IMG/VR virus record: IMGVR_UViG_3300020036_009553
Span: 64,416-128,415 of that record
Source: a virus
Taxonomy: Duplodnaviria > Caudoviricetes
Reading direction: 5' to 3' (one strand)
DNA length: 64,000 nt
Below, piece by piece: positions 25,290 to 42,526 of this stretch (position 1 is its first letter; the number at the start of each line of letters is the position of its first letter). The position numbers and the translations under genes are program-made. Below the pieces are notes generated by a model that searched no databases, was not told where the DNA came from, and saw only the letters and a program-made list of their open reading frames with translations.

Positions 25290-26963
25290 TTATTTGACAA
25301 GTCTCAAAGTAGAAAAACTCATATTTCCAGCGGCATCCTTTGCTGTAAAAGTTACTACGTGAGTTCCGGCTGGGACACTTGATAGATACCACCGAAAACT
25401 TAATGTGCTTCCCGTCACGGTTTTTCGTACCACATTATCAATCGTCAATGTTTGAGTAATTCCAGTTGCGCCTGAATCGTCAGTGGCAGTACTGTACAAT
25501 GTGATTGCAGATTTGTTGGTAATGGGACTGTTATCAACAGGGGACACCACTGTAATTACAGGAGGAGTCTTGTCGTTAAAGATAGATACATTAATAGGTG
25601 CTGATTCGCCAACGTTGCCAGAAGTATCAATAGCGATAGCCTTGACAACTCCTGTCCCATTTGTGAGTGTTCTTGTATCAACAGAGAACACATATGGGGG
25701 AGACAGTAACGTTCCGTACATAGTGCCGTTGACTGCTAGATTCACACTTTCAACGCCCTTATCGTCTGTTGCAGTGACAGTTATATTGGTCATCCCTGTA
25801 ATTGTTCCTGATGTGGGTGTTATGGTTACAACAGGAGGAGTACGATCAGGAGTTGGAACATTTATTGAACTGGCTAGTTTTAATGCTGCTCCCACATTAA
25901 TGCGTCCATACCCATAATATATATCTTTACCAGGGGTTCCTAGATCTACAGCAGATGTTTGTATAATATTTTGGACTTCATCGGGTGTTAGCGCTGGGTT
26001 GACCGAAAATAACAACGCTGCTAATCCTGCTACTTGTGGACTAGAAAAAGACGTTTTTGACCAGGCACTGTACCCTCCCTCTCTATTTGTGGTTAGGATT
26101 CCTTGACCTGGTGCTGCTACTGATATGTGATTGCCATAGTTCGAATATGTTTGCCACACGTCGTTAGCATCGGTTGCTGCCACGACGATTGAATTGTTAG
26201 AGGTTGCTGCTACGTTCTGTAATAATCCATTGTTGCCAGCACACATAACAACGACCCCGCCCTTGCTTTTGAAATAGGCCGCTGCATCATTAACGATGGC
26301 ACTGCTTGCTACACTAGATACACTAATATTAGCAACCTTAGCTCCATTATCCGCAGCCCACCGAAGTCCTGCAGCCACCGTACTATAATAAGCATATCCA
26401 AGGTCATCTGTTACTCTGATTGGCATGATTCTTGCATTATACGCAACAGAAGCAATCCCTAATGCGTTATTTCCTACAGCTGCTGCCACCCCAGCGACGG
26501 CAGTCCCGTGCCGAGATACATCAGCGGTATTGTTTGTATTATTCCACACATTCCACCCTGGTACTAAATTATTAATTAAATCAGGGTGAGTAGCCAGGAC
26601 TCCACTGTCAAGAATTGCAATAATTACCCCAGTTCCTGTTGACGCGTCCCACCCTACTGGTGCGTTAATTTTTGATAAGTGATACTGGCTGGGAAAAGAT
26701 GGATCATTAGGTGTACCATCTAGAGGCACTCTTTTATCTACTTCAATGTGTTTAGTATTTGGATCTTTGGCGGCGTCCGACATAGCGTCGGCCACACTTT
26801 TTCCTTTTGGAACTACAATTTTTTTAATTTCCGGCGCTGCAGCATCAGACTTATTGGTAGATTGAATTAACAACACCGTTTCTTTTGTTGGGGGCGGCGT
26901 TGGCTGTCCCGCTGTTGCTGTTCCAATAGATAATGCAGCGAGTATTGGTATTAGAAATTTCAT
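25290..26963 (-). CDS. secreted subtilisin-family (S8) serine protease with two C-terminal Ig-like domains
   Basis: signal peptide; LDSG, HGTAVAG, AGN, TSFSSPQVAG catalytic motifs; DRTPP/DKTPP Big-type domains. Confidence 0.9.
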   Translation of the reverse strand: MKFLIPILAALSIGTATAGQPTPPPTKETVLLIQSTNKSDAAAPEIKKIVVPKGKSVADAMSDAAKDPNTKHIEVDKRVPLDGTPNDPSFPSQYHLSKINAPVGWDASTGTGVIIAILDSGVLATHPDLINNLVPGWNVWNNTNNTADVSRHGTAVAGVAAAVGNNALGIASVAYNARIMPIRVTDDLGYAYYSTVAAGLRWAADNGAKVANISVSSVASSAIVNDAAAYFKSKGGVVVMCAGNNGLLQNVAATSNNSIVVAATDANDVWQTYSNYGNHISVAAPGQGILTTNREGGYSAWSKTSFSSPQVAGLAALLFSVNPALTPDEVQNIIQTSAVDLGTPGKDIYYGYGRINVGAALKLASSINVPTPDRTPPVVTITPTSGTITGMTNITVTATDDKGVESVNLAVNGTMYGTLLSPPYVFSVDTRTLTNGTGVVKAIAIDTSGNVGESAPINVSIFNDKTPPVITVVSPVDNSPITNKSAITLYSTATDDSGATGITQTLTIDNVVRKTVTGSTLSFRWYLSSVPAGTHVVTFTAKDAAGNMSFSTLRLVK

Positions 26964-26988: not shown

Positions 26989-26996
26989 TATTTATA
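26989..26996 (-). promoter_or_regulatory. T4-like late promoter
   Basis: TATAAATA 25 nt before the protease ATG. Confidence 0.6.
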
Positions 26997-31546: not shown

Positions 31547-34165
31547 TTATTGTGATACTAATATTTCTAATACATTGCCATTTGGTACCACGGTATTGAA
31601 TGTAACTTGGGTAGATAATGTTCCTGGAATTCCAACTTCCTCATATCCCAATGAACCGGACACAGAAGTATTTACAGGTGCGGAACATGAATCAATCTGC
31701 TCAAACAATTCTCCTGCGCTGTATGATACCACCATGCTAGATCCCGGTCCACCAGATAAACTAGATATAAAACTTATTACAATTTCGTTTGGCCGTTGAT
31801 CGTTAACGAGTCCTACGGGTTGCCATCCATGGGGAGGAACAGGGGTAGCCACACTTTGATAGTTAGGTAGTGAAGAAAATAGCGGATTAACAGTGGCGTC
31901 AGTAATTGAGATGCTTGAAGTTTCCCCTGTTGTAGTAGATGTAATTCGTATCCGGTGGTTTCCAGAATCTAATGTGGCAACAGCAGCCCCAGCTAAATCA
32001 ATATTGATTTCAGTAAGTAGGTCAGTAAAAGTAGCAGCATTAACTCCCGTGATTAATAATGATTTAACGTCACTATCATCTACTTTGACTGTTGCTGCGT
32101 ACGTAGTTCCTCCCGTCAATCCTGTTGCATCCCCACCCGCTGGACCGGCTCCAGAAAACGTTACATCTTCATACCCACTTGTTGAGGTGGGAAGTGATGA
32201 TAAGGCTAGATACAACGCATTCAATAGATCAAGATATGTATAATCTGCGGTTACCACTGTAGTTAACACTGTAGCAGTTCCATCCCAAGTCAAGGTAAAA
32301 TCATATGAGCCAGGAGTAATTGGAACCAATGATTTTAATCCAACATTGGGTTGTTGAAAGGTTAATGTAGATGTTCCTCGCTCATCAGCATATAATTTGA
32401 TGCCGTCTTGGAATATTTGCAAATTATTGCTGCTAATTTCATACGCCATTTCATCATTCAAAGTTAAATTAGTGATTCCGCCAACACCAGCAACAACGAT
32501 TTGTCGCCGTTTATTTTGCGCTGCGGCATACAACATTTGGTCAACAGATGTTATTATATCCTTTAACGTAATAAGTGGATAATTTGGATTGGTGGCGAAA
32601 AAGGACATTAATGCACTTTGGCTGTACTCACGCGATAAGTCATACAATAGTTGGGTAGTCATGTGGTTGTGAACCATTGGAGAAATACGGTCACGTGTCA
32701 CAACAGGATCCAACCCAGAGGACCTCACCAATATTAACGATCCACCTGGTACTCCAGGAACGGGCGCAGCAATGGTTACGTAATCAGTCAAAGAATTAAA
32801 TAAATCTGTGTCACTGATTGCCACGGATGAAAATTCACCTGATGTGGTTGATAGAATTTTCAAATAGCCAGTGTTGGTAAATTGACATATTCCTGCTCCT
32901 CCCAGGTCATTGTTTATTTCAGTGAATAAATTTGAAAATATTTGTGCTTCAAATCCATTAATTGATATATTTTTATCAACACCATCAATATTGATAGTTG
33001 CGGTATATACAGTGGCGTCATTAGCTAGTCCTGTAGCATCAGGTCCTGATTTTAGCGTAGTAAATACCACAGTCTGATATCCTGCTGTATCTGATGGATT
33101 GAAAATAGATTCGGTTGTTACTCCATCCGCAGCTCCATTATTAGGAGGAAATACTATATTTGTAATAGCATCGGTGATAGTGTCATCCACATATAATTTA
33201 TTGGCAGCATCGGTGTTTGACACAGGAGATCCAACAGCTTGGACCACATTATCTCCAAATGATATTCCTCCAACGCTTACATTTCCGGGGGCAACAACAA
33301 AGTTAGAATTGGGATGAATGGTTATGTCACCTCCCACAATTACAGGACCAGATAGCGCTCCTCCTGTTAATGGGAGATAATTTCCGCTTCCTGTTACAAT
33401 GGCGTCAATTCTGGCACTCAATGCTTGGTCAGCGATGATCATATTGTTATCTAGCACAGCAATCTGATTACTTAATATTGTATCAGTATTTTGTAATGTG
33501 GTAATTTGCCCCGATAGGGTCGAATGGGATAGATTGATAGAATTCTGCAACGCTGCATCTACAGCATCAACATACGTCTTATTTGTTACGTGATTACCAA
33601 GGACAGGCAGCTCTGGAGAAATAAAATAATGTCCTGGTGTAGTGGCCAGATCACCAGTTAATGTTCCTCCTCCTAATGTTAGTATATTAGCATTAAGGTA
33701 AGCAACACTAACTGCATCGTTCGGATCGGTGGCTAATCCTAAATTGGTAATTTTTTGGTTTCCAACATCAACAGGAGCGGTGATTTCTCCGCTTATGAGT
33801 AGTGGCGACCATGAAACGTTGTTCCACAGATACAATCCTTTTGTAGCTGGATCCGTAGGAAATAAAATATTTGCTCCTACGGTGTCTTTGTACCAAAGCA
33901 TTCCCTTCAGGGGAGGTTGGGGGCGAGTTGGACCAGCGAAATTTTCAGCAAGATACACCAGATTATTTTGTACCATTTCTCCATATTCAGGAACTCCTTT
34001 TCCGGTCAATACCAGTGGAGTGTTAGCAGAAACAGCGTGAACACTTGAAATTGGATTAATATATAATGACGTGGTTAAAGGGGACTGAGGTCCATTTGCT
34101 GTATATGGTTTAACAACAAACGCAGGAGTCCCATCATTGGAAAATCTAAAATTATAATCTGACAT
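31547..34165 (-). CDS. virion structural / fibre protein (872 aa)
   Basis: N-terminal L.GKG...YGE....L..LAENFA...P..G.LW domain, NK.YVD repeats, duplicated ~100-aa internal domain; AATAAATA at 34209-34216. Confidence 0.8.
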   Translation of the reverse strand: MSDYNFRFSNDGTPAFVVKPYTANGPQSPLTTSLYINPISSVHAVSANTPLVLTGKGVPEYGEMVQNNLVYLAENFAGPTRPQPPLKGMLWYKDTVGANILFPTDPATKGLYLWNNVSWSPLLISGEITAPVDVGNQKITNLGLATDPNDAVSVAYLNANILTLGGGTLTGDLATTPGHYFISPELPVLGNHVTNKTYVDAVDAALQNSINLSHSTLSGQITTLQNTDTILSNQIAVLDNNMIIADQALSARIDAIVTGSGNYLPLTGGALSGPVIVGGDITIHPNSNFVVAPGNVSVGGISFGDNVVQAVGSPVSNTDAANKLYVDDTITDAITNIVFPPNNGAADGVTTESIFNPSDTAGYQTVVFTTLKSGPDATGLANDATVYTATINIDGVDKNISINGFEAQIFSNLFTEINNDLGGAGICQFTNTGYLKILSTTSGEFSSVAISDTDLFNSLTDYVTIAAPVPGVPGGSLILVRSSGLDPVVTRDRISPMVHNHMTTQLLYDLSREYSQSALMSFFATNPNYPLITLKDIITSVDQMLYAAAQNKRRQIVVAGVGGITNLTLNDEMAYEISSNNLQIFQDGIKLYADERGTSTLTFQQPNVGLKSLVPITPGSYDFTLTWDGTATVLTTVVTADYTYLDLLNALYLALSSLPTSTSGYEDVTFSGAGPAGGDATGLTGGTTYAATVKVDDSDVKSLLITGVNAATFTDLLTEINIDLAGAAVATLDSGNHRIRITSTTTGETSSISITDATVNPLFSSLPNYQSVATPVPPHGWQPVGLVNDQRPNEIVISFISSLSGGPGSSMVVSYSAGELFEQIDSCSAPVNTSVSGSLGYEEVGIPGTLSTQVTFNTVVPNGNVLEILVSQ

Positions 34166-34247
34166 GTATAACGTCCTTATGGCTTACCAACAATAAAATA
34201 TGTAATACTATTTATTGTTGGTTGACATAAAGAATCTATGGCGTATT

Positions 34248-35516
34248 TCAATCTATCCAATGTATTGAATTATTGAACAGCAATTTTAATGATGCTGTCC
34301 GTATAGCTTTATAATGAATTTTTTCAAGAGTGCAATTTATTGCAAACACAGCATCACCCAAATCTAACGGACAGGAACTCTTGCATACACGATAATTTCC
34401 ACAAGAAATACAATGAGATTCTCGCGTTATGTCCATTTTTTTAATGCGAATTCCCTTGAGGTGCATTATATTACCACTATTGTACGTTTCGTCTACATTT
34501 TGGCAAGCTCTAACATTGCCCAACATGTCCATAGTGATAGTTTTGCTGTCATCCGACCCACATGAAGTTTTAATGATGGATTTAGCTGGATGTTTCAAAG
34601 ATGCCGCTAGTGGAAGGATTCCTGTTCCTGTGTGGACCAAGGTAGTACGGAGTAGGGTTGAATTGGGGTTTGTATGAGTGAGTTGAACAATATGAGCGTC
34701 TAGGTAATTGGTAAGGATATCATGATACTTTGGCAAATCATCTCCTGTGATGACATGGTGTGTGGAATTTTGTGATAATGTACTATCATACACTCGTCCT
34801 AATTCATATACTAAAGTAACTAGATTTAAGTTGTGTGTTGTGAGGTAATTGTAGAAAAAATCATTAATGTTGAATAGGTTATAATTTGTTTTGCTGATAA
34901 CAGCATTGAAACTGAATTGTATTCTTGGGTAAAAATCAGTTTGAATTCGTTGAAGAACTTCCACTTTTCTGTGTAAAAATTCAGGTCCTCTAGTGACATC
35001 ATGCCCGGGTCCATCGTGAGATATCCCGATAACTACCTTCCCTGTTAATTGTGCAAAAAAATCTATATGTTTATGATTTAATAATGTCCCATTTGTGGGG
35101 ATGTACCAAGTAAGAGTTGGAGCATCCAACTCTTTCATTAACTCTTTTATATCATTCCAATATAATAATGTTTCTCCACCCCAGAGTTCAACGCGCTCTA
35201 AAGAAGAACAATCTAAATGGCGTCGTATAGACTTGATCAACATTGGGGTCAAAGAATTGGTTTTTCTCTCTTCAGGATTACCAATATCTTTTTGCATACA
35301 ATACCCACAACTGTAATTACATCCATGGCCTAAAATAATTTTAAGCAGTACTGGCGTCTTTGATTTAGATAAAGTTCCATACCTGGTAACAATTGGGGAA
35401 TCGGGCAACTCATAGGATACTAATGGCACACCATCAGCATCACAAATCCCATTATAGACATTGTCATATGTTAGAATTTGAGGAGAATCACCAACCCTAA
35501 ATTTAAAGAGGCTCAT
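34248..35516 (-). CDS. radical SAM/SPASM protein (rSAM-4)
   Basis: CNYSCGYC, WGGETL, TNG, SHDG; C..G...C and CISC.....CKSSCP....C. Confidence 0.9.
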   Translation of the reverse strand: MSLFKFRVGDSPQILTYDNVYNGICDADGVPLVSYELPDSPIVTRYGTLSKSKTPVLLKIILGHGCNYSCGYCMQKDIGNPEERKTNSLTPMLIKSIRRHLDCSSLERVELWGGETLLYWNDIKELMKELDAPTLTWYIPTNGTLLNHKHIDFFAQLTGKVVIGISHDGPGHDVTRGPEFLHRKVEVLQRIQTDFYPRIQFSFNAVISKTNYNLFNINDFFYNYLTTHNLNLVTLVYELGRVYDSTLSQNSTHHVITGDDLPKYHDILTNYLDAHIVQLTHTNPNSTLLRTTLVHTGTGILPLAASLKHPAKSIIKTSCGSDDSKTITMDMLGNVRACQNVDETYNSGNIMHLKGIRIKKMDITRESHCISCGNYRVCKSSCPLDLGDAVFAINCTLEKIHYKAIRTASLKLLFNNSIHWID

Positions 35517-36643
35517 GCTGAAAATCCAAATAATGATACTATCCCTGGAATATTAGAGGATGGATTATACAATCCATGTTCGGTAGACATCCATCCTTGT
35601 TTGACAAATTGCTTATATATTTGCATATATGGTCTGAACACTAACATTGGAATAAAATTATAATTAGGATTAACAATTACATTATTGGACACATATTCAA
35701 AATATTTTTTAAACGCAGGGTTTGGAGCGAAAGTCAACAACGCAGCGTCTTGTTTGTACTTGTTAATTTTTGCCTGCAATGTCTTATATACTAATACTGA
35801 CACATCATCGTTTCCCTCTTCCATAATATCGTAATAAGGAGTTGAGTTTTCAATGGTGCTATCCACCATAGTTAAATAGATATTAGTTCCTTGAACATAT
35901 ATTAATTCACTCAACACACTTACTGGGATGTTATTAATTACAGTATGAGTTTGATCTTTGTAATCAACACCGGGCGCATCAGTAGAAGTACAAGGCTGCG
36001 TAAAGTCAAAATGTGATCCGACTGCAATGTTATTTTGATGAGCCCAATCTACTACAGTTTGTACCCCAGTACTTGTATCCCCCCCAGGAGTGCTAATGAT
36101 GATTTTTATCTTTCCAACAGGGGTTTGTTGGTGGCAAGCAGTCAACCTTCGAACAATTTCGTGGGCGAATTCTCCTTTTTTCTTGTTTAAAAACACATCG
36201 CTGAAAGATAGTTCATAAATTCCAGTAAACTCTAATGAATTAATGATTGGTTGTTGTTGAATAAACCCAATATCTGTCACACCGGCGTGCAGCATTCTAC
36301 TACTGTGTTTTTCGTAGAATGCAAACAATGAAGGATGGTTTCGTTTAATAAAGTACATGTCATCGCATGTGGTAACAACATCAAATAAATCCATTATTTT
36401 GACGAGGCGTTCTTCTTTATCAGGAGTCATTGGAGTGATATATTGTTTCATTTTTTCTTCATCCACCCAAAAATCTTCAAGATAACATATTTTACATCCA
36501 GAGTAACATCGGTATTTGTTAAACACATTAATAACAACATCATTCGTCAAGTTATATAATAAATCATAGCGAATGAAAAAATCCTTAAAATTTGTATCCA
36601 ACGTGAGTTCTGGGATGGTGTGTTGGTCTAGCGCATTAATCAT
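35513..36643 (-). CDS. divergent radical SAM protein (rSAM-3), no SPASM; start moved to ATG 36643
   Basis: CYSGCKIC; no GGEP; ATGA overlaps on both sides. Confidence 0.65.
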   Translation of the reverse strand: MINALDQHTIPELTLDTNFKDFFIRYDLLYNLTNDVVINVFNKYRCYSGCKICYLEDFWVDEEKMKQYITPMTPDKEERLVKIMDLFDVVTTCDDMYFIKRNHPSLFAFYEKHSSRMLHAGVTDIGFIQQQPIINSLEFTGIYELSFSDVFLNKKKGEFAHEIVRRLTACHQQTPVGKIKIIISTPGGDTSTGVQTVVDWAHQNNIAVGSHFDFTQPCTSTDAPGVDYKDQTHTVINNIPVSVLSELIYVQGTNIYLTMVDSTIENSTPYYDIMEEGNDDVSVLVYKTLQAKINKYKQDAALLTFAPNPAFKKYFEYVSNNVIVNPNYNFIPMLVFRPYMQIYKQFVKQGWMSTEHGLYNPSSNIPGIVSLFGFSA

Positions 36644-37707
36644 ATTCCTACCCAATGAAAGAAAGTTTTTTGTGTTTTTAATTTTTGTGAATGGAGTATA
36701 ATTACATTCAACATTTCATAGAATTGTTTACATTTATCTGATGTTCGTGGCTCATTAAATCCCTTAAATAAGTATTTGAGGCCACATGTGGGTCGGGATG
36801 AACAAGAGACGCAGTCAGGCAATAACATATCATCATCATTTTTAATTCTATTTAATTTAATTGGTGGTTTCCATGATCCGATTGATGTATGGGTCCACTT
36901 ATATTCAAGAAAATCATATTCCGGATAAATTAACCCGTCAGGGGATAAGATTAATTGTTTGTGTTGATTGAAGTAATGTTTATCAATACCGGTCCCTTGT
37001 CCATCAACGACAACATCAACCCCATATGTGTAAAGGACGTGTATAAACCGCAGGAAAGCGGCGAAAAACAAAGGTAAATCTAAGTCATTGATCAACACTT
37101 TAAAATTATCAGCGCCACGATGGTGCCGCAATGGAATTAATACAATATTACTAATCGAGTGTTGGTTAAACATAGCCACGATGGCTTTGATGGTATTGAG
37201 ACTAAAAACTTGTGGATCTGTGATGGGCATTACATATTGTAATTGCACATCTTTAATTCCTGCATTGTTGAGGATCGTTAATGCTTCGTGGATGTCAAAC
37301 TCTGTTCGATTAATTGGCTGATATAAAAAATCATAGCTGATGCTTACTCGTAGCAATTTCCCCCACCGCTTGAAGAATTTTTCATTGCGTTGGATTAAAC
37401 TGCCATTTGTTTGAATAAAAAATTGAACAGGAGATGAAGTGTTAATCGATATTGAAGATATGAGTTGGTCCATAACATCTACAAATACCAACGGTTCTCC
37501 TCCGTGAAAACTAAACATTTTTGGAGGATTAGTGAATAGTCCAGTATCACGCAAAAAGGTTATCAGTGCGGGTACATCGTCAAGGGTAAAAGACTGGTTT
37601 CCTATTTTTGTGATATACTTGCGGTCACAATATCCACATTGGAAATTGCACTTAGTGCCAAGATGAAAACTTACATCTTGGCACCCACTGAAATCAAACG
37701 TATCCAT
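36640..37707 (-). CDS. radical SAM protein with partial SPASM (rSAM-2); start moved to ATG 37707
   Basis: CNFQCGYC, FHGGEPL, QTNGSL; CVSC.....C...C; first SPASM cysteines missing. Confidence 0.9.
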   Translation of the reverse strand: MDTFDFSGCQDVSFHLGTKCNFQCGYCDRKYITKIGNQSFTLDDVPALITFLRDTGLFTNPPKMFSFHGGEPLVFVDVMDQLISSISINTSSPVQFFIQTNGSLIQRNEKFFKRWGKLLRVSISYDFLYQPINRTEFDIHEALTILNNAGIKDVQLQYVMPITDPQVFSLNTIKAIVAMFNQHSISNIVLIPLRHHRGADNFKVLINDLDLPLFFAAFLRFIHVLYTYGVDVVVDGQGTGIDKHYFNQHKQLILSPDGLIYPEYDFLEYKWTHTSIGSWKPPIKLNRIKNDDDMLLPDCVSCSSRPTCGLKYLFKGFNEPRTSDKCKQFYEMLNVIILHSQKLKTQKTFFHWVGI

Positions 37708-37708
37708 T

Positions 37709-39421
37709 TTAGGAGGATGTGTTGGGATCGTTGGGAACAGCCCTCGAGTAAAAAACATCTCCCCTTTTTGACAAAATTAATAGATGAAGCAATGTCAAAT
37801 AGAATATGCGTTTATTAACATCACTAATCGTTGTGGAATTTAACATTTTTGGGGTTGCTCCCTTTGCGATAGATGCTGCGTGAAATAATTCATCAATTTC
37901 AACTCGTGAGTTGTTTGACTCATAAATTTGTAGAATAAATTCACGTGGATCTGTTGGTAAGAGAGCAGCTGTGGATTCATCTTGAGGTAATGCGCTAATA
38001 AAATATCCCGCTATATGTCGGTATGGTGGGAGGGCAGCAGCAACCATTAACTTATCGTCCCATTCAATATGATGTTTGTGAACGTAGAAATACAGCAAAT
38101 GAAGGAGAGCTTTCGCAAAAATGAATTCTTCTCCCTGTTCCTCTACCGCCGCAATAATATTCTTCATTTTTCGTAGCATTGCTGTTTGAGTAGATTTATT
38201 GTGGAGTGTATTATACAAATCCACGATTTCCATACACATGGCATCAGGGCGGAACATGCGGCCGTCGCCTGTTGAGAGATTACCAGCAGGACATTGAAAA
38301 CATTCATCATGCATCGTACAAGTTTTACATTGAGCTTCTTCCAGAAACATTTTTTCATATTCACTCTGAAAAGTAGCATATCTGTCGATATATACAGCAT
38401 CATTAAATAGGTTACCAAGAATCGTGTTTCCTAATTGTTCTTTCATATTGGTGAAGAAATAACATCCAGAATAATCGCCACTTCCATCCATAGCAATCAT
38501 ATCAGACCCAACCATGCAATTGGATTTTCCCTTAATTCCAACTCCCTCAGAAAACTCAATATTGAAATCTGGATACTTCATAATCAAATAAGACACATCT
38601 TTCCGGAGTTGTGTCCAATTTTCCTCGGGCCACATTACGAAACCATCGGTGACGCTTGTAGTAAGTGGATGAATCACCATGTTGGTAAGACCTAGCCCAA
38701 TAATTTTTTCAACAAATGCAACCAATCGTGGTGCTGTCTCAATGGAAACGGTGTTACGAATGCACACATTGTGAATTCGTTTAGTGGTTTTAACAATTCG
38801 GTCCATCATTTTAAACAAATGATCTTGTTGATCTTGTGTCAAGTTGCGGTGATCATGCTCTAGTTCCGTTGTGTCTAGGCTGATTAACATTCCTGTAAAA
38901 TCATACCCAAAATATTCATCAACGAAATCGGGAGTTAATAGCAATCCATTGGTAACCATATCAATATGTTGGCGATTTGAATTTGCTGATAGCTCTAATT
39001 TGTGGGTGCGCAAAAAATCTAAAATCAATTTTTTATGGATCAATGGTTCTCCCCCAAAAAATTGAAAATGTTTCATTGTGACATTGTTGCAATTTAATAG
39101 GAAATCATAGATTTGTTTCAGAGAATCAACCGTGAACCGCCCATAATCAAGCCTGTGTTGTTCATAACAATAATCACAAGTTAAATTACAAGCATTTGTG
39201 AGAATAACATTGATTAATTGAAGTTGATTAAACAATTCAGGAACTTCTTTGATGGATACGATTCGTTCAGTATCCGTTGGTTTAATTGTTTTATACGCTT
39301 TGTTCGCAACAATTCCGTGAGGTGTCACAATGGATTTGGTTGTAACGATTAACCCATTTATGTGTTCGTCGATAAGATTATTTCTTTTTTTGTAAAATTC
39401 AATTGGTTGTGTTGCGGCCAT
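37709..39421 (-). CDS. radical SAM/SPASM protein with a long C-terminal extension (rSAM-1)
   Basis: CNLTCDYC, FFGGEPL, TNG, SLD; C.VG...G...GC, CKTC.....CFQCP....C. Confidence 0.92.
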   Translation of the reverse strand: MAATQPIEFYKKRNNLIDEHINGLIVTTKSIVTPHGIVANKAYKTIKPTDTERIVSIKEVPELFNQLQLINVILTNACNLTCDYCYEQHRLDYGRFTVDSLKQIYDFLLNCNNVTMKHFQFFGGEPLIHKKLILDFLRTHKLELSANSNRQHIDMVTNGLLLTPDFVDEYFGYDFTGMLISLDTTELEHDHRNLTQDQQDHLFKMMDRIVKTTKRIHNVCIRNTVSIETAPRLVAFVEKIIGLGLTNMVIHPLTTSVTDGFVMWPEENWTQLRKDVSYLIMKYPDFNIEFSEGVGIKGKSNCMVGSDMIAMDGSGDYSGCYFFTNMKEQLGNTILGNLFNDAVYIDRYATFQSEYEKMFLEEAQCKTCTMHDECFQCPAGNLSTGDGRMFRPDAMCMEIVDLYNTLHNKSTQTAMLRKMKNIIAAVEEQGEEFIFAKALLHLLYFYVHKHHIEWDDKLMVAAALPPYRHIAGYFISALPQDESTAALLPTDPREFILQIYESNNSRVEIDELFHAASIAKGATPKMLNSTTISDVNKRIFYLTLLHLLILSKRGDVFYSRAVPNDPNTSS

Positions 39422-39445
39422 AGGTATCTCCTTGGCAAATATGAG

Positions 39446-40342
39446 TTATGAGGATATAATTAAGGTGGAATATTCAAATCGCTCTGCTGGATCATTGGAG
39501 TCATCGCAAAATACACCAGAGTTAAATTTAATGTGGACGTACCCTAATTTATTGACGGGCGGAGTTATTAGTATTCCTGTTTCAGTAATCGTTGTGGTTA
39601 AATTAGTTTTAAATGTGGGATTCATATTCTTCCACCATTCTATTTGATCTGTTGGGGTTACATCAAAATATGGTCCACAAAAAAAGGAAATATGAAAAGG
39701 TTGGTCCTCACATATTAATATATTAGTAGATAGTTGGGTAGCCCCATCTATATGTGGGGATACAACTGCTTGTTTCAATGACCCATCTTCCCTGCCCACA
39801 GTCCGAATATGTAGTGTCTCTGTGGTAATATCACAATTATACGGAAGTCTGGCCATATTCTCATTAACCACGGCACAATATATGGATGTATTTTTTACAT
39901 TATAAAATCCCATAACTGGTAGAACAGCGATGTGCTCTGGAAATTCGGAATGTGTTATAATATCAATTAGTACCCCGTCACTCTTGCGACGGGCGATATA
40001 TCGTAGATTAGCAACAAACTCGTATTCTGATAGGTTGGTGGAAGGGGGAATTACTGCCAATAATACAAAATCACAATCTAATAATGAATGTATTATTGCG
40101 TTGAAGTCTATCGGGTGAACCAAAAATGTTTTCTCATTTAATGGTCCCGTTGGAGTAGTTGAATGTGCTATTACCATGGGGGAATCATGAATATCGTATG
40201 CTTTTCCGGGCATTACATGAAGTCCCATCGCTGGTCGTACACAATCGCTTATTCTACTACCAAATACACAATGAACAATATCTATGAATGAATCAAAAGC
40301 ATTTACTGCAGCAATGCCCTCTTTTACGTAAATATAATTCAT
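39446..40342 (-). CDS. hypothetical protein in the radical SAM operon (298 aa)
   Basis: co-oriented ORF starting 6 nt after the peptide gene. Confidence 0.75.
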   Translation of the reverse strand: MNYIYVKEGIAAVNAFDSFIDIVHCVFGSRISDCVRPAMGLHVMPGKAYDIHDSPMVIAHSTTPTGPLNEKTFLVHPIDFNAIIHSLLDCDFVLLAVIPPSTNLSEYEFVANLRYIARRKSDGVLIDIITHSEFPEHIAVLPVMGFYNVKNTSIYCAVVNENMARLPYNCDITTETLHIRTVGREDGSLKQAVVSPHIDGATQLSTNILICEDQPFHISFFCGPYFDVTPTDQIEWWKNMNPTFKTNLTTTITETGILITPPVNKLGYVHIKFNSGVFCDDSNDPAERFEYSTLIISS

Positions 40343-40348
40343 GTGTAA

Positions 40349-40561
40349 TTATAAAATCCCTCTGGTGCAATTGTTGTTAACCCAACAATTGCAAGCTGTT
40401 CCATAATCGTCGTAATACACGTGGGTATGACTTACCAATGCGTCAAGGCAGGCAATCATATCGTGAAACACTCCCACTGTGATGGGATCACCGATGTTAG
40501 GGGTAGCTTGAACGTTTGGTTGGGCGGTTGAACTAAATGCTGTATTATCAGAAGCGCTCAT
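40349..40561 (-). CDS. 70-aa His/Tyr/Cys-rich peptide, candidate radical SAM substrate
   Basis: AAGGA RBS; first gene after a promoter; C-terminus HTHVYYDDYGTACNCWVNNNCTRGIL. Confidence 0.8.
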   Translation of the reverse strand: MSASDNTAFSSTAQPNVQATPNIGDPITVGVFHDMIACLDALVSHTHVYYDDYGTACNCWVNNNCTRGIL

Positions 40562-40593
40562 AAGGTTTTTCCTTTATTATAATTTATATTTTT

Positions 40594-40622
40594 ATTATAC
40601 GACAATCGTATGCATAAGACAA
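40594..40622 (-). promoter_or_regulatory. sigma70-type promoter of the peptide-radical SAM operon
   Basis: TTGTCT(40622-40617)-N17-TATAAT(40599-40594). Confidence 0.7.
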
Positions 40623-40627
40623 CAATA

Positions 40628-41068
40628 TTAATAAGAATCGTCGTACCAGAAATGATAGTGGTGTAATCTAACTGCTAATATACGATTTCTCAAGGTATCC
40701 ACACTGGCTTTGGTGATGGCTGTTCCCTGTGCGCACGGATTGTTGATGTTATACGTGTACATGTATCCATTTACGTTATATGGGTATCCTGACGTTTCCC
40801 AGTGATCAAGTGTTGTAGTTGCCACTTGGTCATATCCTCCGGTGGTAACATTGTGTAAATCATAGATTTGGTGTGTATGATAACCAAACGTGGAAGTAAG
40901 ATAATTGATAGAACTCATCGTTGCTGCCGTAATGGACGCCCCTGTAGCAATGCCAGCTTTTATTGTTGCGTGAGCTGCCTTTGTAGACCAAGCATTCTCT
41001 ACATTAGTCGTTCGTGTAGCCTGGTAAAAAGTTAGCGGTTGTTGCCAATATTCATAATCCCACCCCAT
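40628..41068 (-). CDS. 146-aa aromatic/His-rich protein with two GxxIT...HxH repeats
   Basis: AAGGAG RBS; motif shared with the 70-aa peptide. Confidence 0.8.
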   Translation of the reverse strand: MGWDYEYWQQPLTFYQATRTTNVENAWSTKAAHATIKAGIATGASITAATMSSINYLTSTFGYHTHQIYDLHNVTTGGYDQVATTTLDHWETSGYPYNVNGYMYTYNINNPCAQGTAITKASVDTLRNRILAVRLHHYHFWYDDSY

Positions 41069-41083
41069 GTGTTAATCTCCTTT

Positions 41084-42526
41084 TTATGAATACACAGCAG
41101 GGTACACTTGTTTCCAAGCACCATTTGCTCTAATGTAAATTAAATTTCCAGAAACAAGAATATCACCATTCTTTTCTGTGCCACCAGTAGGGTTAATTCT
41201 TGGGGTATTGGCTGCGGTTACTCCTCCTAGGCCACCTGATATAGCATTTACTTGATCGACAACATATTTTTTAGTGGCAGCATCTTGGTTAGCTATTGGG
41301 TCTGCTACATTATGAACAAGCTGGTTATTCATGTTCACATTGGTGCCGTTTATTGATACTCCGCCGGCATTAAGTGTCGTACCATTAACAGTTGCTGCGG
41401 TTAATGTACCAGTCACTCCAGCGTTTCCAGAGACATTCAATGTTACTACGTTGGCGGTAGATAAAGTAGAAATTCCTGTTACACCAGCAGCTCCAGTAAC
41501 TGTCAGGGAAGAAATAGTTGCGCCACCATTTAAAGTAGCTGCTCCCGTTACGCCTAATGTTGTAGATACTGTAGCTGCACTTATAGTAGCTCCACCGTTC
41601 AATGTTGTGGTGCCGGAAACAATTAGGTTTCCTGTAATGGTTCCACCAGCCTTGAGTAAGTATAATCCGTTTGATGCGGTTTCTGAAGCAGATATGGCGG
41701 TTGTTACATAATCATATACAACCCCACCATTGGTAGCTTGTTTGTTGCCAGACGCCACAATGCCATTAGCCAGGTTGATGATTTTGAAGTTGTTCATATT
41801 CAAATCACCACCAAGCACCATATTTCCGCCACCACTCAGCAATGAGTTCCAAGCGGTTCCGTTCCAAATGTTTATTTCATTGGTGTTAGTATCATACCAA
41901 ATTGTACCACGCTGTGGATCTGATGGGGCTACGCTGGTTACCGTTACTGTTGTCGGGGAAATCCACTCTCCACTTCCGCCATTTGTGTAAGCGTTATAGA
42001 CCAATAGTCCATGTTCAGGAGAATTAGTAGGAGCTGTCCCTGACCCGCCAGGTGGAGTTAGATTGGTAAAATACCTTGGCATCCATGCCGCCCCAGCTTG
42101 CTTATATGCCGAATCCCAACGATACAATGTGTCATCAGCGGAACTATAATAATACGCACCAATGGTTGGATTACCTGGAGGTGCTGTGGCAACAATGCCT
42201 GTACCGTTTAACCTAGCCCACACATTTGATGAAGGATTAAACCACCACCATCCTTCATCATCAGCAAGACTTGAGTCATGGTAATAATAACGAATAGTAT
42301 TCCACAATTGCCCGGAAATAGGGCTAACCGGTGGCGATGATCCACCGAAAGTTTCAGCTAATCGAATCAGATCTTCATCAACTGCTTCTCCCCATTCAAG
42401 AGCACCACGTCCATATAAACGCAATGATGAGTTTGATTGGGCGCCGCCAGGACCATTGAATCCACCAGGCTGAATTAAAAATCCACTTTTTAGTGGATCC
42501 GATAGGGTGATATCGTATGTTGACAT
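41084..42526 (-). CDS. tail fibre-like structural protein (480 aa)
   Basis: same N-terminal domain as 31547..34165; G.IWYDT, DAATKKYV; CATAAATA at 42563-42570. Confidence 0.8.
   Translation of the reverse strand: MSTYDITLSDPLKSGFLIQPGGFNGPGGAQSNSSLRLYGRGALEWGEAVDEDLIRLAETFGGSSPPVSPISGQLWNTIRYYYHDSSLADDEGWWWFNPSSNVWARLNGTGIVATAPPGNPTIGAYYYSSADDTLYRWDSAYKQAGAAWMPRYFTNLTPPGGSGTAPTNSPEHGLLVYNAYTNGGSGEWISPTTVTVTSVAPSDPQRGTIWYDTNTNEINIWNGTAWNSLLSGGGNMVLGGDLNMNNFKIINLANGIVASGNKQATNGGVVYDYVTTAISASETASNGLYLLKAGGTITGNLIVSGTTTLNGGATISAATVSTTLGVTGAATLNGGATISSLTVTGAAGVTGISTLSTANVVTLNVSGNAGVTGTLTAATVNGTTLNAGGVSINGTNVNMNNQLVHNVADPIANQDAATKKYVVDQVNAISGGLGGVTAANTPRINPTGGTEKNGDILVSGNLIYIRANGAWKQVYPAVYS

Follow-up and report, generated by a model that had tools for sequence, protein, structure and literature searches.

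A phage gene cassette pairing a small cysteine-rich peptide with four radical S-adenosylmethionine enzymes beside fiber-like genes

What does a phage do with four radical S-adenosylmethionine (SAM) enzymes encoded next to a small peptide and among fiber-like genes? We address this question in a 64,000-nucleotide stretch of DNA (the window; positions 64,416 to 128,415 of the IMG/VR virus record IMGVR_UViG_3300020036_009553, Caudoviricetes). The window makes up the latter half of a 128-kb viral contig that is an estimated 57% complete, and its source is thus a jumbo-sized phage. An earlier note, made from the sequence alone, described a minus-strand group of genes for a 70–amino acid peptide, a 298–amino acid protein (P298), and four CxxxCxxC proteins (rSAM-1 to rSAM-4). 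It read them as a phage-encoded modification system resembling those for RiPPs (ribosomally synthesized peptides that are modified post-translationally), with a modified virion component as a likelier product than a secreted toxin. It also named WxN, YxD, and HxH in the peptide tail as candidate cyclophane sites. The open reading frame (ORF) coordinates bear out this gene set. We show that the peptide, its ~300–amino acid partner, and the four enzymes are one co-inherited phage unit located beside fiber-like genes. On balance, the evidence leans modestly toward the cassette being a phage-specific maturation unit for a small fiber-associated structural protein, whose tail the enzymes would crosslink, and not a source of a secreted RiPP.

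The linkage between the peptide and the enzymes was found from both directions. Scanned with the peptide motif, IMG/VR yielded 21 loci, and every locus long enough has rSAM-1 to rSAM-4 downstream in that order. The converse scan, by rSAM-4 alone, hit 141 loci; 80 of them were kept, and the counts below refer to these 80. All four enzymes are held by 47 loci, and a hidden Markov model (HMM) detects the peptide in 46 of them (E 1e-17 to 1e-35). The lone four-enzyme locus without a peptide ends at a contig edge, and thus the peptide is present in all 46 informative loci. Four-enzyme clusters without a conserved peptide, which the earlier note had named as grounds for abandoning its reading, were sought and none was found. 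P298 adjoins the peptide in 43 of the 46 loci, in either gene order. The link persists in five different gene orders; the peptide precedes P298 in 17 loci and follows it in 25, the pair comes after rSAM-4 in one, and the peptide is on the opposite strand in two. The conserved cassette also stands beside fiber-like genes in other phages. A putative precursor linked to its modifying enzymes, the arrangement expected of a RiPP cluster, is therefore present here. This linkage, together with the matches to crosslinking maturases described below, supports the RiPP-like reading, and we regard it as highly probable that the peptide is the substrate of the enzymes.

Related cassettes vary in their enzyme content. 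A minimal cassette (L084, 8306-11284) comprises a P298-like gene, a 67–amino acid peptide with a C-E-C-E-C tail, an HxH protein (discussed below), and a single rSAM-4–like enzyme, followed by large fiber-like genes. Since this is the only enzyme kept there, rSAM-4 is the likeliest cysteine-directed enzyme of the set. Other cassettes have gained genes: DUF3050 heme oxygenase–like proteins, a B12-dependent radical SAM enzyme, and a fifth radical SAM enzyme, with collagen-repeat proteins nearby. One DUF3050 gene sits between rSAM-1 and rSAM-2, and L018 has two in tandem. The DUF3050 proteins and both additional radical SAM enzymes are tailoring enzymes typical of RiPP clusters.

We also observed a second clade of single rSAM-4–like enzymes (33 to 38% identical) at L077, L080, L088, L093, L096, and L101, where no such peptide occurs. 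Beside these enzymes are proteins of ~135 to 150 amino acids that start ...RLIACGACA and are otherwise glycine-rich, with cupin and fiber-like genes close by. These glycine-rich proteins may be another substrate class.

The peptide family has a well-defined layout. Across 39 distinct orthologs aligned from viral loci, a polar and variable N terminus leads into G-D-x-I-x-x-D-T-F-x-Q-M-L-x-x-L-x-x-L, with hydrophobic residues every three to four positions, and then into H-x-H-x-[FY]-x-D-D-Y. After D-D-Y come two or three small residues, a (C-x)2-4-C run, x-R-G-x, and a last residue that is usually hydrophobic. The number of cysteines ranges from three to five, the residues between them are nearly always N, D, E, Q, or A, and the cysteines and the RG are the most conserved part. 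In a separate 16-sequence alignment, H45, T46, H47, D51, Y53, C59, C65, R67, and G68 are invariant.

The family is large: with sequences grouped at 90% identity, it comprises at least 412 clusters. Most of those listed have 65 to 79 residues, none of those listed has a functional name or Pfam domain, and some derive from contigs as long as 360 kb. In 185,579 prokaryote species genomes, a motif scan found no peptide relative, absence being unproven by a pattern-based scan. Among cultured phages (50,697 records), the peptide occurs solely in Ralstonia phages RP12 and RP31; a DNA-level search of cultured phages gave no match. In RP12, a 65–amino acid ORF (NC_041911.1, 82888-83085; L001:12889-13086) lies within the 280-bp gap between ORF074 and ORF075, as it does in RP31, and is absent from the annotation. 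The tail of the RP12 and RP31 peptides shares HTH-x-[FY]YD-x-Y...CNCNC...TRG with the family.

The four enzymes are all recognizable as radical SAM proteins. Three exceed the cutoff (29.5 bits) of the Pfam Radical_SAM model (PF04055): rSAM-1 (61.7 bits, E 1.2e-16), rSAM-4 (41.9 bits, E 1.5e-10), and rSAM-2 (34.7 bits, E 2.5e-8). No Pfam or NCBIfam model matches rSAM-3, whose family contains 109 representative clusters and has an invariant CxxxCxxC in 47 homologs. Its AlphaFold 2 (AF2) model has a predicted local distance difference test (pLDDT) score of 93.2, and over ~250 residues it aligns to MoaA (Z 11.3), SuiB (11.1), ChlB (10.9), anSME (9.7), and PqqE (9.4). TigE and EpeE also fall within Z 9 to 11.3, and every one of the 26 best structural matches is a radical SAM enzyme. 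The invariant motif and the predicted fold thus place rSAM-3 in the radical SAM superfamily.

The enzymes differ in their auxiliary cysteines. The Pfam SPASM model reported nothing for the window enzymes at E 0.01 or better. We scored cysteine conservation over 39 to 63 orthologs per enzyme against the seven-cysteine SPASM pattern C-x(9-18)-G-x4-C ... C-x2-C-x5-C-x2/3-C ... C, which binds two auxiliary clusters. rSAM-1 has all seven (C302, C320, C365, C368, C374, C377, and C396), each 100% conserved. rSAM-4 also has seven (C319, C338, C369, C372, C378, C382, and C395), and the SPASM cysteines of the two enzymes are conserved at 87 to 100%. rSAM-2 conserves only four (C316, C319, C325, and C343) and rSAM-3 none. 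The division that had been read from the window alone, with full sets in rSAM-1 and rSAM-4, a partial set in rSAM-2, and none in rSAM-3, thus holds across orthologs. Each enzyme is 23 to 56% identical across loci. The four reach at most 27 to 33% identity with each other, confined to the surroundings of the cluster motif. Low mutual identity, combined with conservation of each enzyme across loci, indicates four distinct retained functions and not recent duplicates.

The nearest named relatives of the two full SPASM enzymes are crosslinking maturases. The best NCBIfam match of rSAM-1 is PapB (NF047865; 107.3 bits, E 9e-31, cutoff 340), aligned over nearly the full profile, on which rSAM-4 and rSAM-2 score 36.3 and 30.6 bits. 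The second-best match of rSAM-1 is QhpD (TIGR03906; 66.5 bits, cutoff 453). It also matches the CrpC family (TIGR04463; 55.6 bits, cutoff 525), the SCIFF maturase (TIGR03974; 50.5 bits, cutoff 425), and nif11 and CXXX-repeat maturases. rSAM-4 aligns at full length with CcpM, DynA, and PapB, and MftC is among its weak matches. The closest solved relatives by sequence are CteB (PDB 5WGG, for rSAM-1) and TigE, and SuiB and ChlB, among the best structural matches of rSAM-3, are crosslinkers as well. Matches to viperin and MoaA are short, N-terminal, and uninformative. Clustering with cofactor- or nucleotide-modifying families, a further outcome that would have told against the earlier note, is not what these matches indicate: the full-length SPASM matches are to PapB, QhpD, CcpM, DynA, and CteB. 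Ahead of the cluster motif, rSAM-1 and rSAM-4 have 55 to 70 residues where relatives carry a recognition element; no PqqD or recognition-element profile matched there.

We find that the peptide shares a module with its neighbor. Directly upstream of the peptide in most loci is a protein, 146 amino acids in the window, that carries a helix-HxH-xxx-D module twice; most orthologs end exactly at the second copy. Among 11 aligned orthologs of this HxH protein, H64, H66, H137, H139, and D143 are invariant, and no cysteine is conserved. The peptide HMM matches HxH proteins at E 1e-4 to 3e-8. Since the HxH proteins share the module and are detected by the peptide HMM, the peptide can be described as a third copy of the module with a (Cys-x)n-RG tail. 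The HxH protein matches phrog_31780, whose function is unknown. In the ESM Atlas, it falls in unnamed viral clusters, with one weak lead (0.82) in which 19% of members carry the Pfam radical SAM CXXX-repeat-target family.

The module is also found inside larger proteins. One (P0115) joins an HxH protein and the peptide in a single chain. In another (P0113), the peptide module follows an N-terminal domain that matches the internal domain duplicated in the 872–amino acid protein of the window (38% identity, E 3e-13). A third (P0116) has the module at its N terminus, then a proline linker and a globular domain of ~180 amino acids; no relative of it came up when the prokaryote genomes were scanned by pattern, with absence again unproven. 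This module sharing, together with the fusions to the HxH protein and to a fiber-type domain, gives indirect support to a modified virion component over a secreted toxin.

Hint domains were also observed in this group of proteins. One member of the peptide family (P0114) has an insert of ~130 amino acids resembling a Hint domain or intein inside its CNCNC run, and when viral contigs were scanned with P0114, only the intein part came back, in other genes. The HxH protein at L005:3724-5082 carries a Hint domain at its C terminus (Pfam Hom_end_hint, E 9.3e-7).

The AF2 model of P298 is confident (pLDDT 86.6) and has a C-terminal immunoglobulin (Ig)–like domain with generic matches (Z 5 to 7.3). 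Its sole full-length structural match is ORF075 of RP12 (template modeling score 0.78). Its N-terminal domain gave no fold match in Foldseek searches of PDB, BFVD, and VIA-wide, and the ESM Atlas held nothing usable for P298. A predicted complex of P298 with the peptide scored 0.00, which is evidence neither way.

We propose that the cassette works as follows. In the host cytoplasm, the SPASM enzymes would take a hydrogen atom from the residue next to each tail cysteine and bond the thiol to that carbon. rSAM-4 would act first, because it alone is kept in the minimal cassette, and rSAM-1 would take part too. This would yield stacked short thioether rings, ranthionine- or sactionine-like, as in QhpD/QhpC, PapB, NxxcB, and CrpC/CrpA. 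We give cysteine-based thioether chemistry an even chance. rSAM-2 and rSAM-3 would add further modifications, for which the likeliest target is the invariant H-x-H-x-[FY]-x-D-D-Y, and P298 might hold or present the peptide or serve as a docking partner. Through the short heptad-like helix and the HxH site, the matured peptide would then join the HxH protein and neighboring fiber proteins, giving the host-recognition apparatus a hardened part that possibly binds metal. We judge that the end product is virion- or fiber-associated with odds slightly in its favor. The most specific form of the proposal, in which up to four radical SAM enzymes crosslink a trimeric metal-binding mini-protein that caps or joins fibers in many phage lineages, is more tentative and falls somewhat short of even.

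Several results weigh against this proposal. No enzyme attains the NCBIfam curated cutoff of any named maturase family, and, as all scores lie below these cutoffs, the chemistry is not readable by homology; we infer it from family resemblance only. The trimeric metal-binding form suggested for the HxH module comes by analogy with phage T4 gp12 and gp37, and what is seen in the sequence is the motif and, before it, hydrophobic residues spaced by three to four. The tail of the window peptide itself is atypical. Its residues 57 to 65 (40373-40399, minus strand), CNCWVNNNC, are unique among the 39 orthologs and contain three cysteines against the usual five. A near-identical contig from a wastewater metagenome retains CNCWVNNNC, with only two changes, both synonymous, in the 37 codons covered, and the three-cysteine tail is therefore not an assembly error.

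The virion context is a further point on the same side. Mass spectrometry of RP31 virions left the products of ORF68-76 all undetected (PMC5468394, Table S3). That survey was of gel bands at low coverage, and the peptide ORF was absent from the search database, which makes it weak evidence. The case that the flanking genes are fiber-like is also weak, being drawn from PHROG matches, a stretch shared with a phage JWF protein, RefSeq labels, and sequence style; searches of PDB and of cultured phages were blank. The earlier note had placed the cassette among tail fiber genes: fiber-like genes do stand on both sides, and their identity is the weak part, as the PHROG matches to tail-fiber or virion proteins lie at E 1e-4 to 1e-7. 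The 1507–amino acid protein matches phrog_2710 (E 7.9e-5) and phrog_11338 (E 3.6e-4), and a 101–amino acid stretch of it is 40% identical to gp028, a gp36-like Hint protein of Achromobacter phage JWF. In many related loci, homologs of the 480–amino acid protein that share its C-terminal motif are found two genes upstream of the peptide, separated from it by the HxH protein; the 480–amino acid protein itself gave no PDB match and no tblastn match among cultured phages. PDB sequence searches with the HxH protein profile and the 480– and 1507–amino acid proteins returned nothing significant, apart from one His-tag artifact. Homologs of the 872–amino acid protein come after rSAM-4 in L005 and L006, and the neighbors of the RP12 cassette are labeled “virion structural protein” in RefSeq. 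As a separate observation, phage JWF pairs a Hint/gp36-like protein with a single radical SAM enzyme.

Of the other explanations, a conventional RiPP survives best, and we still consider it unlikely. The peptide would be a leader-plus-core precursor, and its modified C-terminal part, once cleaved, would leave the cell at lysis and affect other cells as a toxin, signal, or metal chelator. A short peptide by SPASM maturases and variable tailoring enzymes is the classic RiPP layout, the N-terminal third is variable, polar, and leader-like, and the RP31 virion survey did not contain the neighboring products. Three genes downstream in the window, just past the fiber-like genes, there is also an S8 subtilase of 557 amino acids (25290-26963, minus strand; Peptidase_S8, E 6.9e-46) with Big_7 Ig domains and its own TATAAATA motif at 26996. 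It could have been the leader peptidase that the operon lacks, but no related locus has it near the cassette, and we therefore do not count it as a conserved part of the system. Among the operon proteins, no signal peptide, exporter, or conserved protease was found, in line with the lack of a transporter and leader peptidase that was remarked on at first, and there is no immunity gene. Moreover, the conservation peak spans the would-be leader helix as well as the core, and the module is homologous to a neighboring protein and occurs fused inside larger proteins, once N-terminal and ahead of a folded domain. The place beside fiber-like genes is, in addition, fixed in divergent phages.

It is also unlikely that the peptide is a helper that carries an Fe-S cluster or metal on its cysteines, donates electrons, or chaperones assembly, and that the enzymes modify the HxH protein or the large fiber proteins instead. 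The HxH protein has the same helix-HxH-D module and is almost always adjacent, radical SAM enzymes require a reductant, and the clade of single rSAM-4–like enzymes stands by glycine-rich fiber-type proteins without such a peptide. However, no Fe-S ferredoxin motif of the form CxCxC is known, the cysteine count varies, and the restricted set of inter-cysteine residues fits acceptors better than ligands. The absence of conserved cysteines from the HxH protein, and the one-to-one co-occurrence of peptide and enzymes, also argue against a helper.

A radical SAM–matured effector, acting inside the cell or in the periplasm in host takeover, counter-defense, or superinfection exclusion, is less probable still. 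This idea follows the HXS system, which shows radical SAM–matured proteins at work in phage-host conflict (PMC13128918), and the peptide does have a His-x-His motif. HxsB (TIGR03978) matches rSAM-1 at 46.8 bits (E 1.7e-12) and rSAM-2 at 38.2 bits (E 7.2e-10), far from the cutoff of 370. The peptide, in turn, has no HxS repeats, signal peptide, or peptidoglycan-binding domain, the cassette lies among fiber-like genes, and the peptide is fused to fiber-type domains. Excision of the YDDY/Cys stretch as a small redox or metal cofactor, in the manner of pyrroloquinoline quinone or mycofactocin, is very improbable: PqqE and MftC are SPASM enzymes that act on short peptides, and they match the rSAM-3 structure and, weakly, rSAM-4, but there are no peptidase, oxidase, or other downstream pathway genes, the entire 45-residue C-terminal part and not a dipeptide is conserved, and the fused forms point to a protein module.

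Along the minus strand, from 42526 to 27004, the order is the 480–amino acid protein, the 146–amino acid HxH protein, a 66-nt spacer, the peptide, P298, rSAM-1 to rSAM-4, a hairpin, and the 872– and 1507–amino acid proteins (Table 1). The 1-nt gap between rSAM-1 and rSAM-2, and the ATGA overlaps between rSAM-2 and rSAM-3 and between rSAM-3 and rSAM-4, are as the earlier note gave them once the internal ATG starts at 37707 (rSAM-2) and 36643 (rSAM-3) are used. Its sigma-70 promoter does not stand: the site matches at 10 of 12 positions, no better than chance, with 37 such sites in the region against 38.1 expected from shuffled sequence. A T4-late-like motif, TATAAATT, lies 27 nt ahead of the peptide ATG, and motifs of this (C/T)ATAAATA type recur upstream of the gene for the 480–amino acid protein and two other window genes. 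This motif is suggestive, as a hint of a promoter only. The AT-rich hairpin after rSAM-4 (-19.6 kcal/mol, z -3.6; 0 of 200 shuffles fold as well) has no U-tract after its stem and may mark the operon end or a processing site.

Table 1. Features of the cassette and its surroundings in the window, with extra genes of related loci in the last row.
Feature	Coordinates	Strand	Basis
Fiber-like protein, 480 amino acids, C terminus ...WKQVYPAVYS	41084..42526	-	Same-motif homologs in related loci; weak PHROG virion-protein matches
HxH protein, 146 amino acids, two G-x-x-I-x-A...helix...HxH-xxx-D modules	40628..41068	-	Alignment, phrog_31780
Promoter-like intergenic stretch: sigma-70-like site 40622-40594, TATAAATT 40588-40581, then AAAGGA ribosome-binding site	40581..40622	-	
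Peptide, 70 amino acids: polar variable N terminus, amphipathic helix (F32, M35, L39, L42), H45-T-H47, YYDDY, CNCWVNNNC, TRGIL	40349..40561	-	
P298, 298–amino acid partner protein: N-terminal alpha/beta domain and C-terminal Ig-like sandwich (188-298)	39446..40342	-	
rSAM-1, 570 amino acids, CNLTCDYC, full SPASM	37709..39421	-	Pfam, NCBIfam, conserved Cys
rSAM-2, ~355 amino acids from ATG 37707, CNFQCGYC, one four-Cys auxiliary motif	36640..37707	-	Pfam, conserved Cys
rSAM-3, 376 amino acids from ATG 36643, CYSGCKIC, divergent radical SAM fold, no auxiliary Cys	35513..36643	-	Motif, AF2 model
rSAM-4, 422 amino acids, CNYSCGYC, full SPASM; sole enzyme kept in minimal cassette L084	34248..35516	-	Pfam, NCBIfam
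Hairpin, 12 bp, right after rSAM-4 stop	34186..34222	-	Folding against shuffles
Fiber-like protein, 872 amino acids, ~115–amino acid internal domain duplicated (residues 345-462, 658-769)	31547..34165	-	
Fiber-like protein, 1507 amino acids	27004..31527	-	Weak PHROG tail-fiber matches
Extra tailoring genes of related loci	L006:11825-12562; L018:15828-17442; L010:15214-16050; L013:13471-15330		DUF3050 proteins; convergent B12-binding radical SAM

Here, we describe a gene set that is widespread in phages yet undescribed. Our results suggest that phages apply chemistry of the peptide-antibiotic type to a small part of their own host-binding apparatus. If fiber-associated maturation is the right reading, RiPP-type radical chemistry builds virus particles and is not confined to secreted microbial peptides, and the cassette represents a new class of virion maturation. 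In its most specific form, the proposal would give the first case of a virus particle modified post-translationally by radical SAM chemistry and would point to a new determinant of fiber stability or receptor binding. The fiber-associated reading would also define a large unnamed peptide family, offer enzymology four mutually distinct new radical SAM enzymes with a defined substrate, and might explain radical SAM genes of unknown role in some jumbo phages. The existing annotation of RP12 and RP31 treats the cassette genes one by one, as radical SAM, Fe-S oxidoreductase, MoaA, and MgoB, and proposes no function (PMC5468394). Other jumbo-phage papers likewise list such genes singly without proposing a function, and our literature search found no paper describing a phage radical SAM cassette with such a peptide. 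Since RP12 and RP31 are cultured and carry the cassette, the hypothesis is directly testable.

Known systems resemble the cassette in different respects. PapB/freyrasin, CteB/SCIFF (5WGG), and NxxcB also pair a short peptide with a SPASM maturase. NxxcB is an Asn-Cys beta-thioether system, and the N-C-N-C spacing of the window family fits an NxxC reading. Unlike these systems, the window cassette comes without an exporter or protease, and its peptide is homologous to a structural-type neighbor and was not found in cellular genomes by the pattern scan. In T4 gp12 and gp37, HxH sites bind metal on the axis of a trimeric fiber. The HxH of the window is similarly invariant and follows a short amphipathic helix; the adjacent protein repeats it, and the genes around it are fiber-like, although no sequence or structure match to those fibers came out of the PDB searches. 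A looser analog is the HXS antiphage system, whose HxS-repeat effector HxsA is matured by HxsB and HxsC (PMC13128918). It too has several radical SAM enzymes and a His-motif protein, but it is bacterial with a periplasmic effector, whereas the window peptide carries one H-T-H and lacks HxS repeats.

The closest counterparts are RP12 and RP31 ORF074-080 (NC_041911.1), the only cultured carriers found, which hold the cassette in the same order with SPASM enzymes 44 to 47% identical. By analogy, the cassette would work most like QhpD/QhpC and CrpC/CrpA (the latter of Methanococcus voltae), in which a SPASM enzyme puts thioether bridges from Cys to Asp, Glu, or other residues into a small Cys-rich protein (PMC13692751). 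There, too, the product stays part of a protein and is not a secreted antibiotic, and rSAM-1 matches both families, although at scores below their cutoffs; by curated score, the cassette is a member of none. It differs from both in having an HxH module with alternating cysteines. What is new relative to these two systems and to PapB, CteB, and NxxcB is that the cassette is phage-encoded and, as far as tested, phage-confined, that it combines four radical SAM enzymes with P298, and that its putative substrate derives from a fiber-type HxH protein and is encoded in a setting of fiber-like genes.

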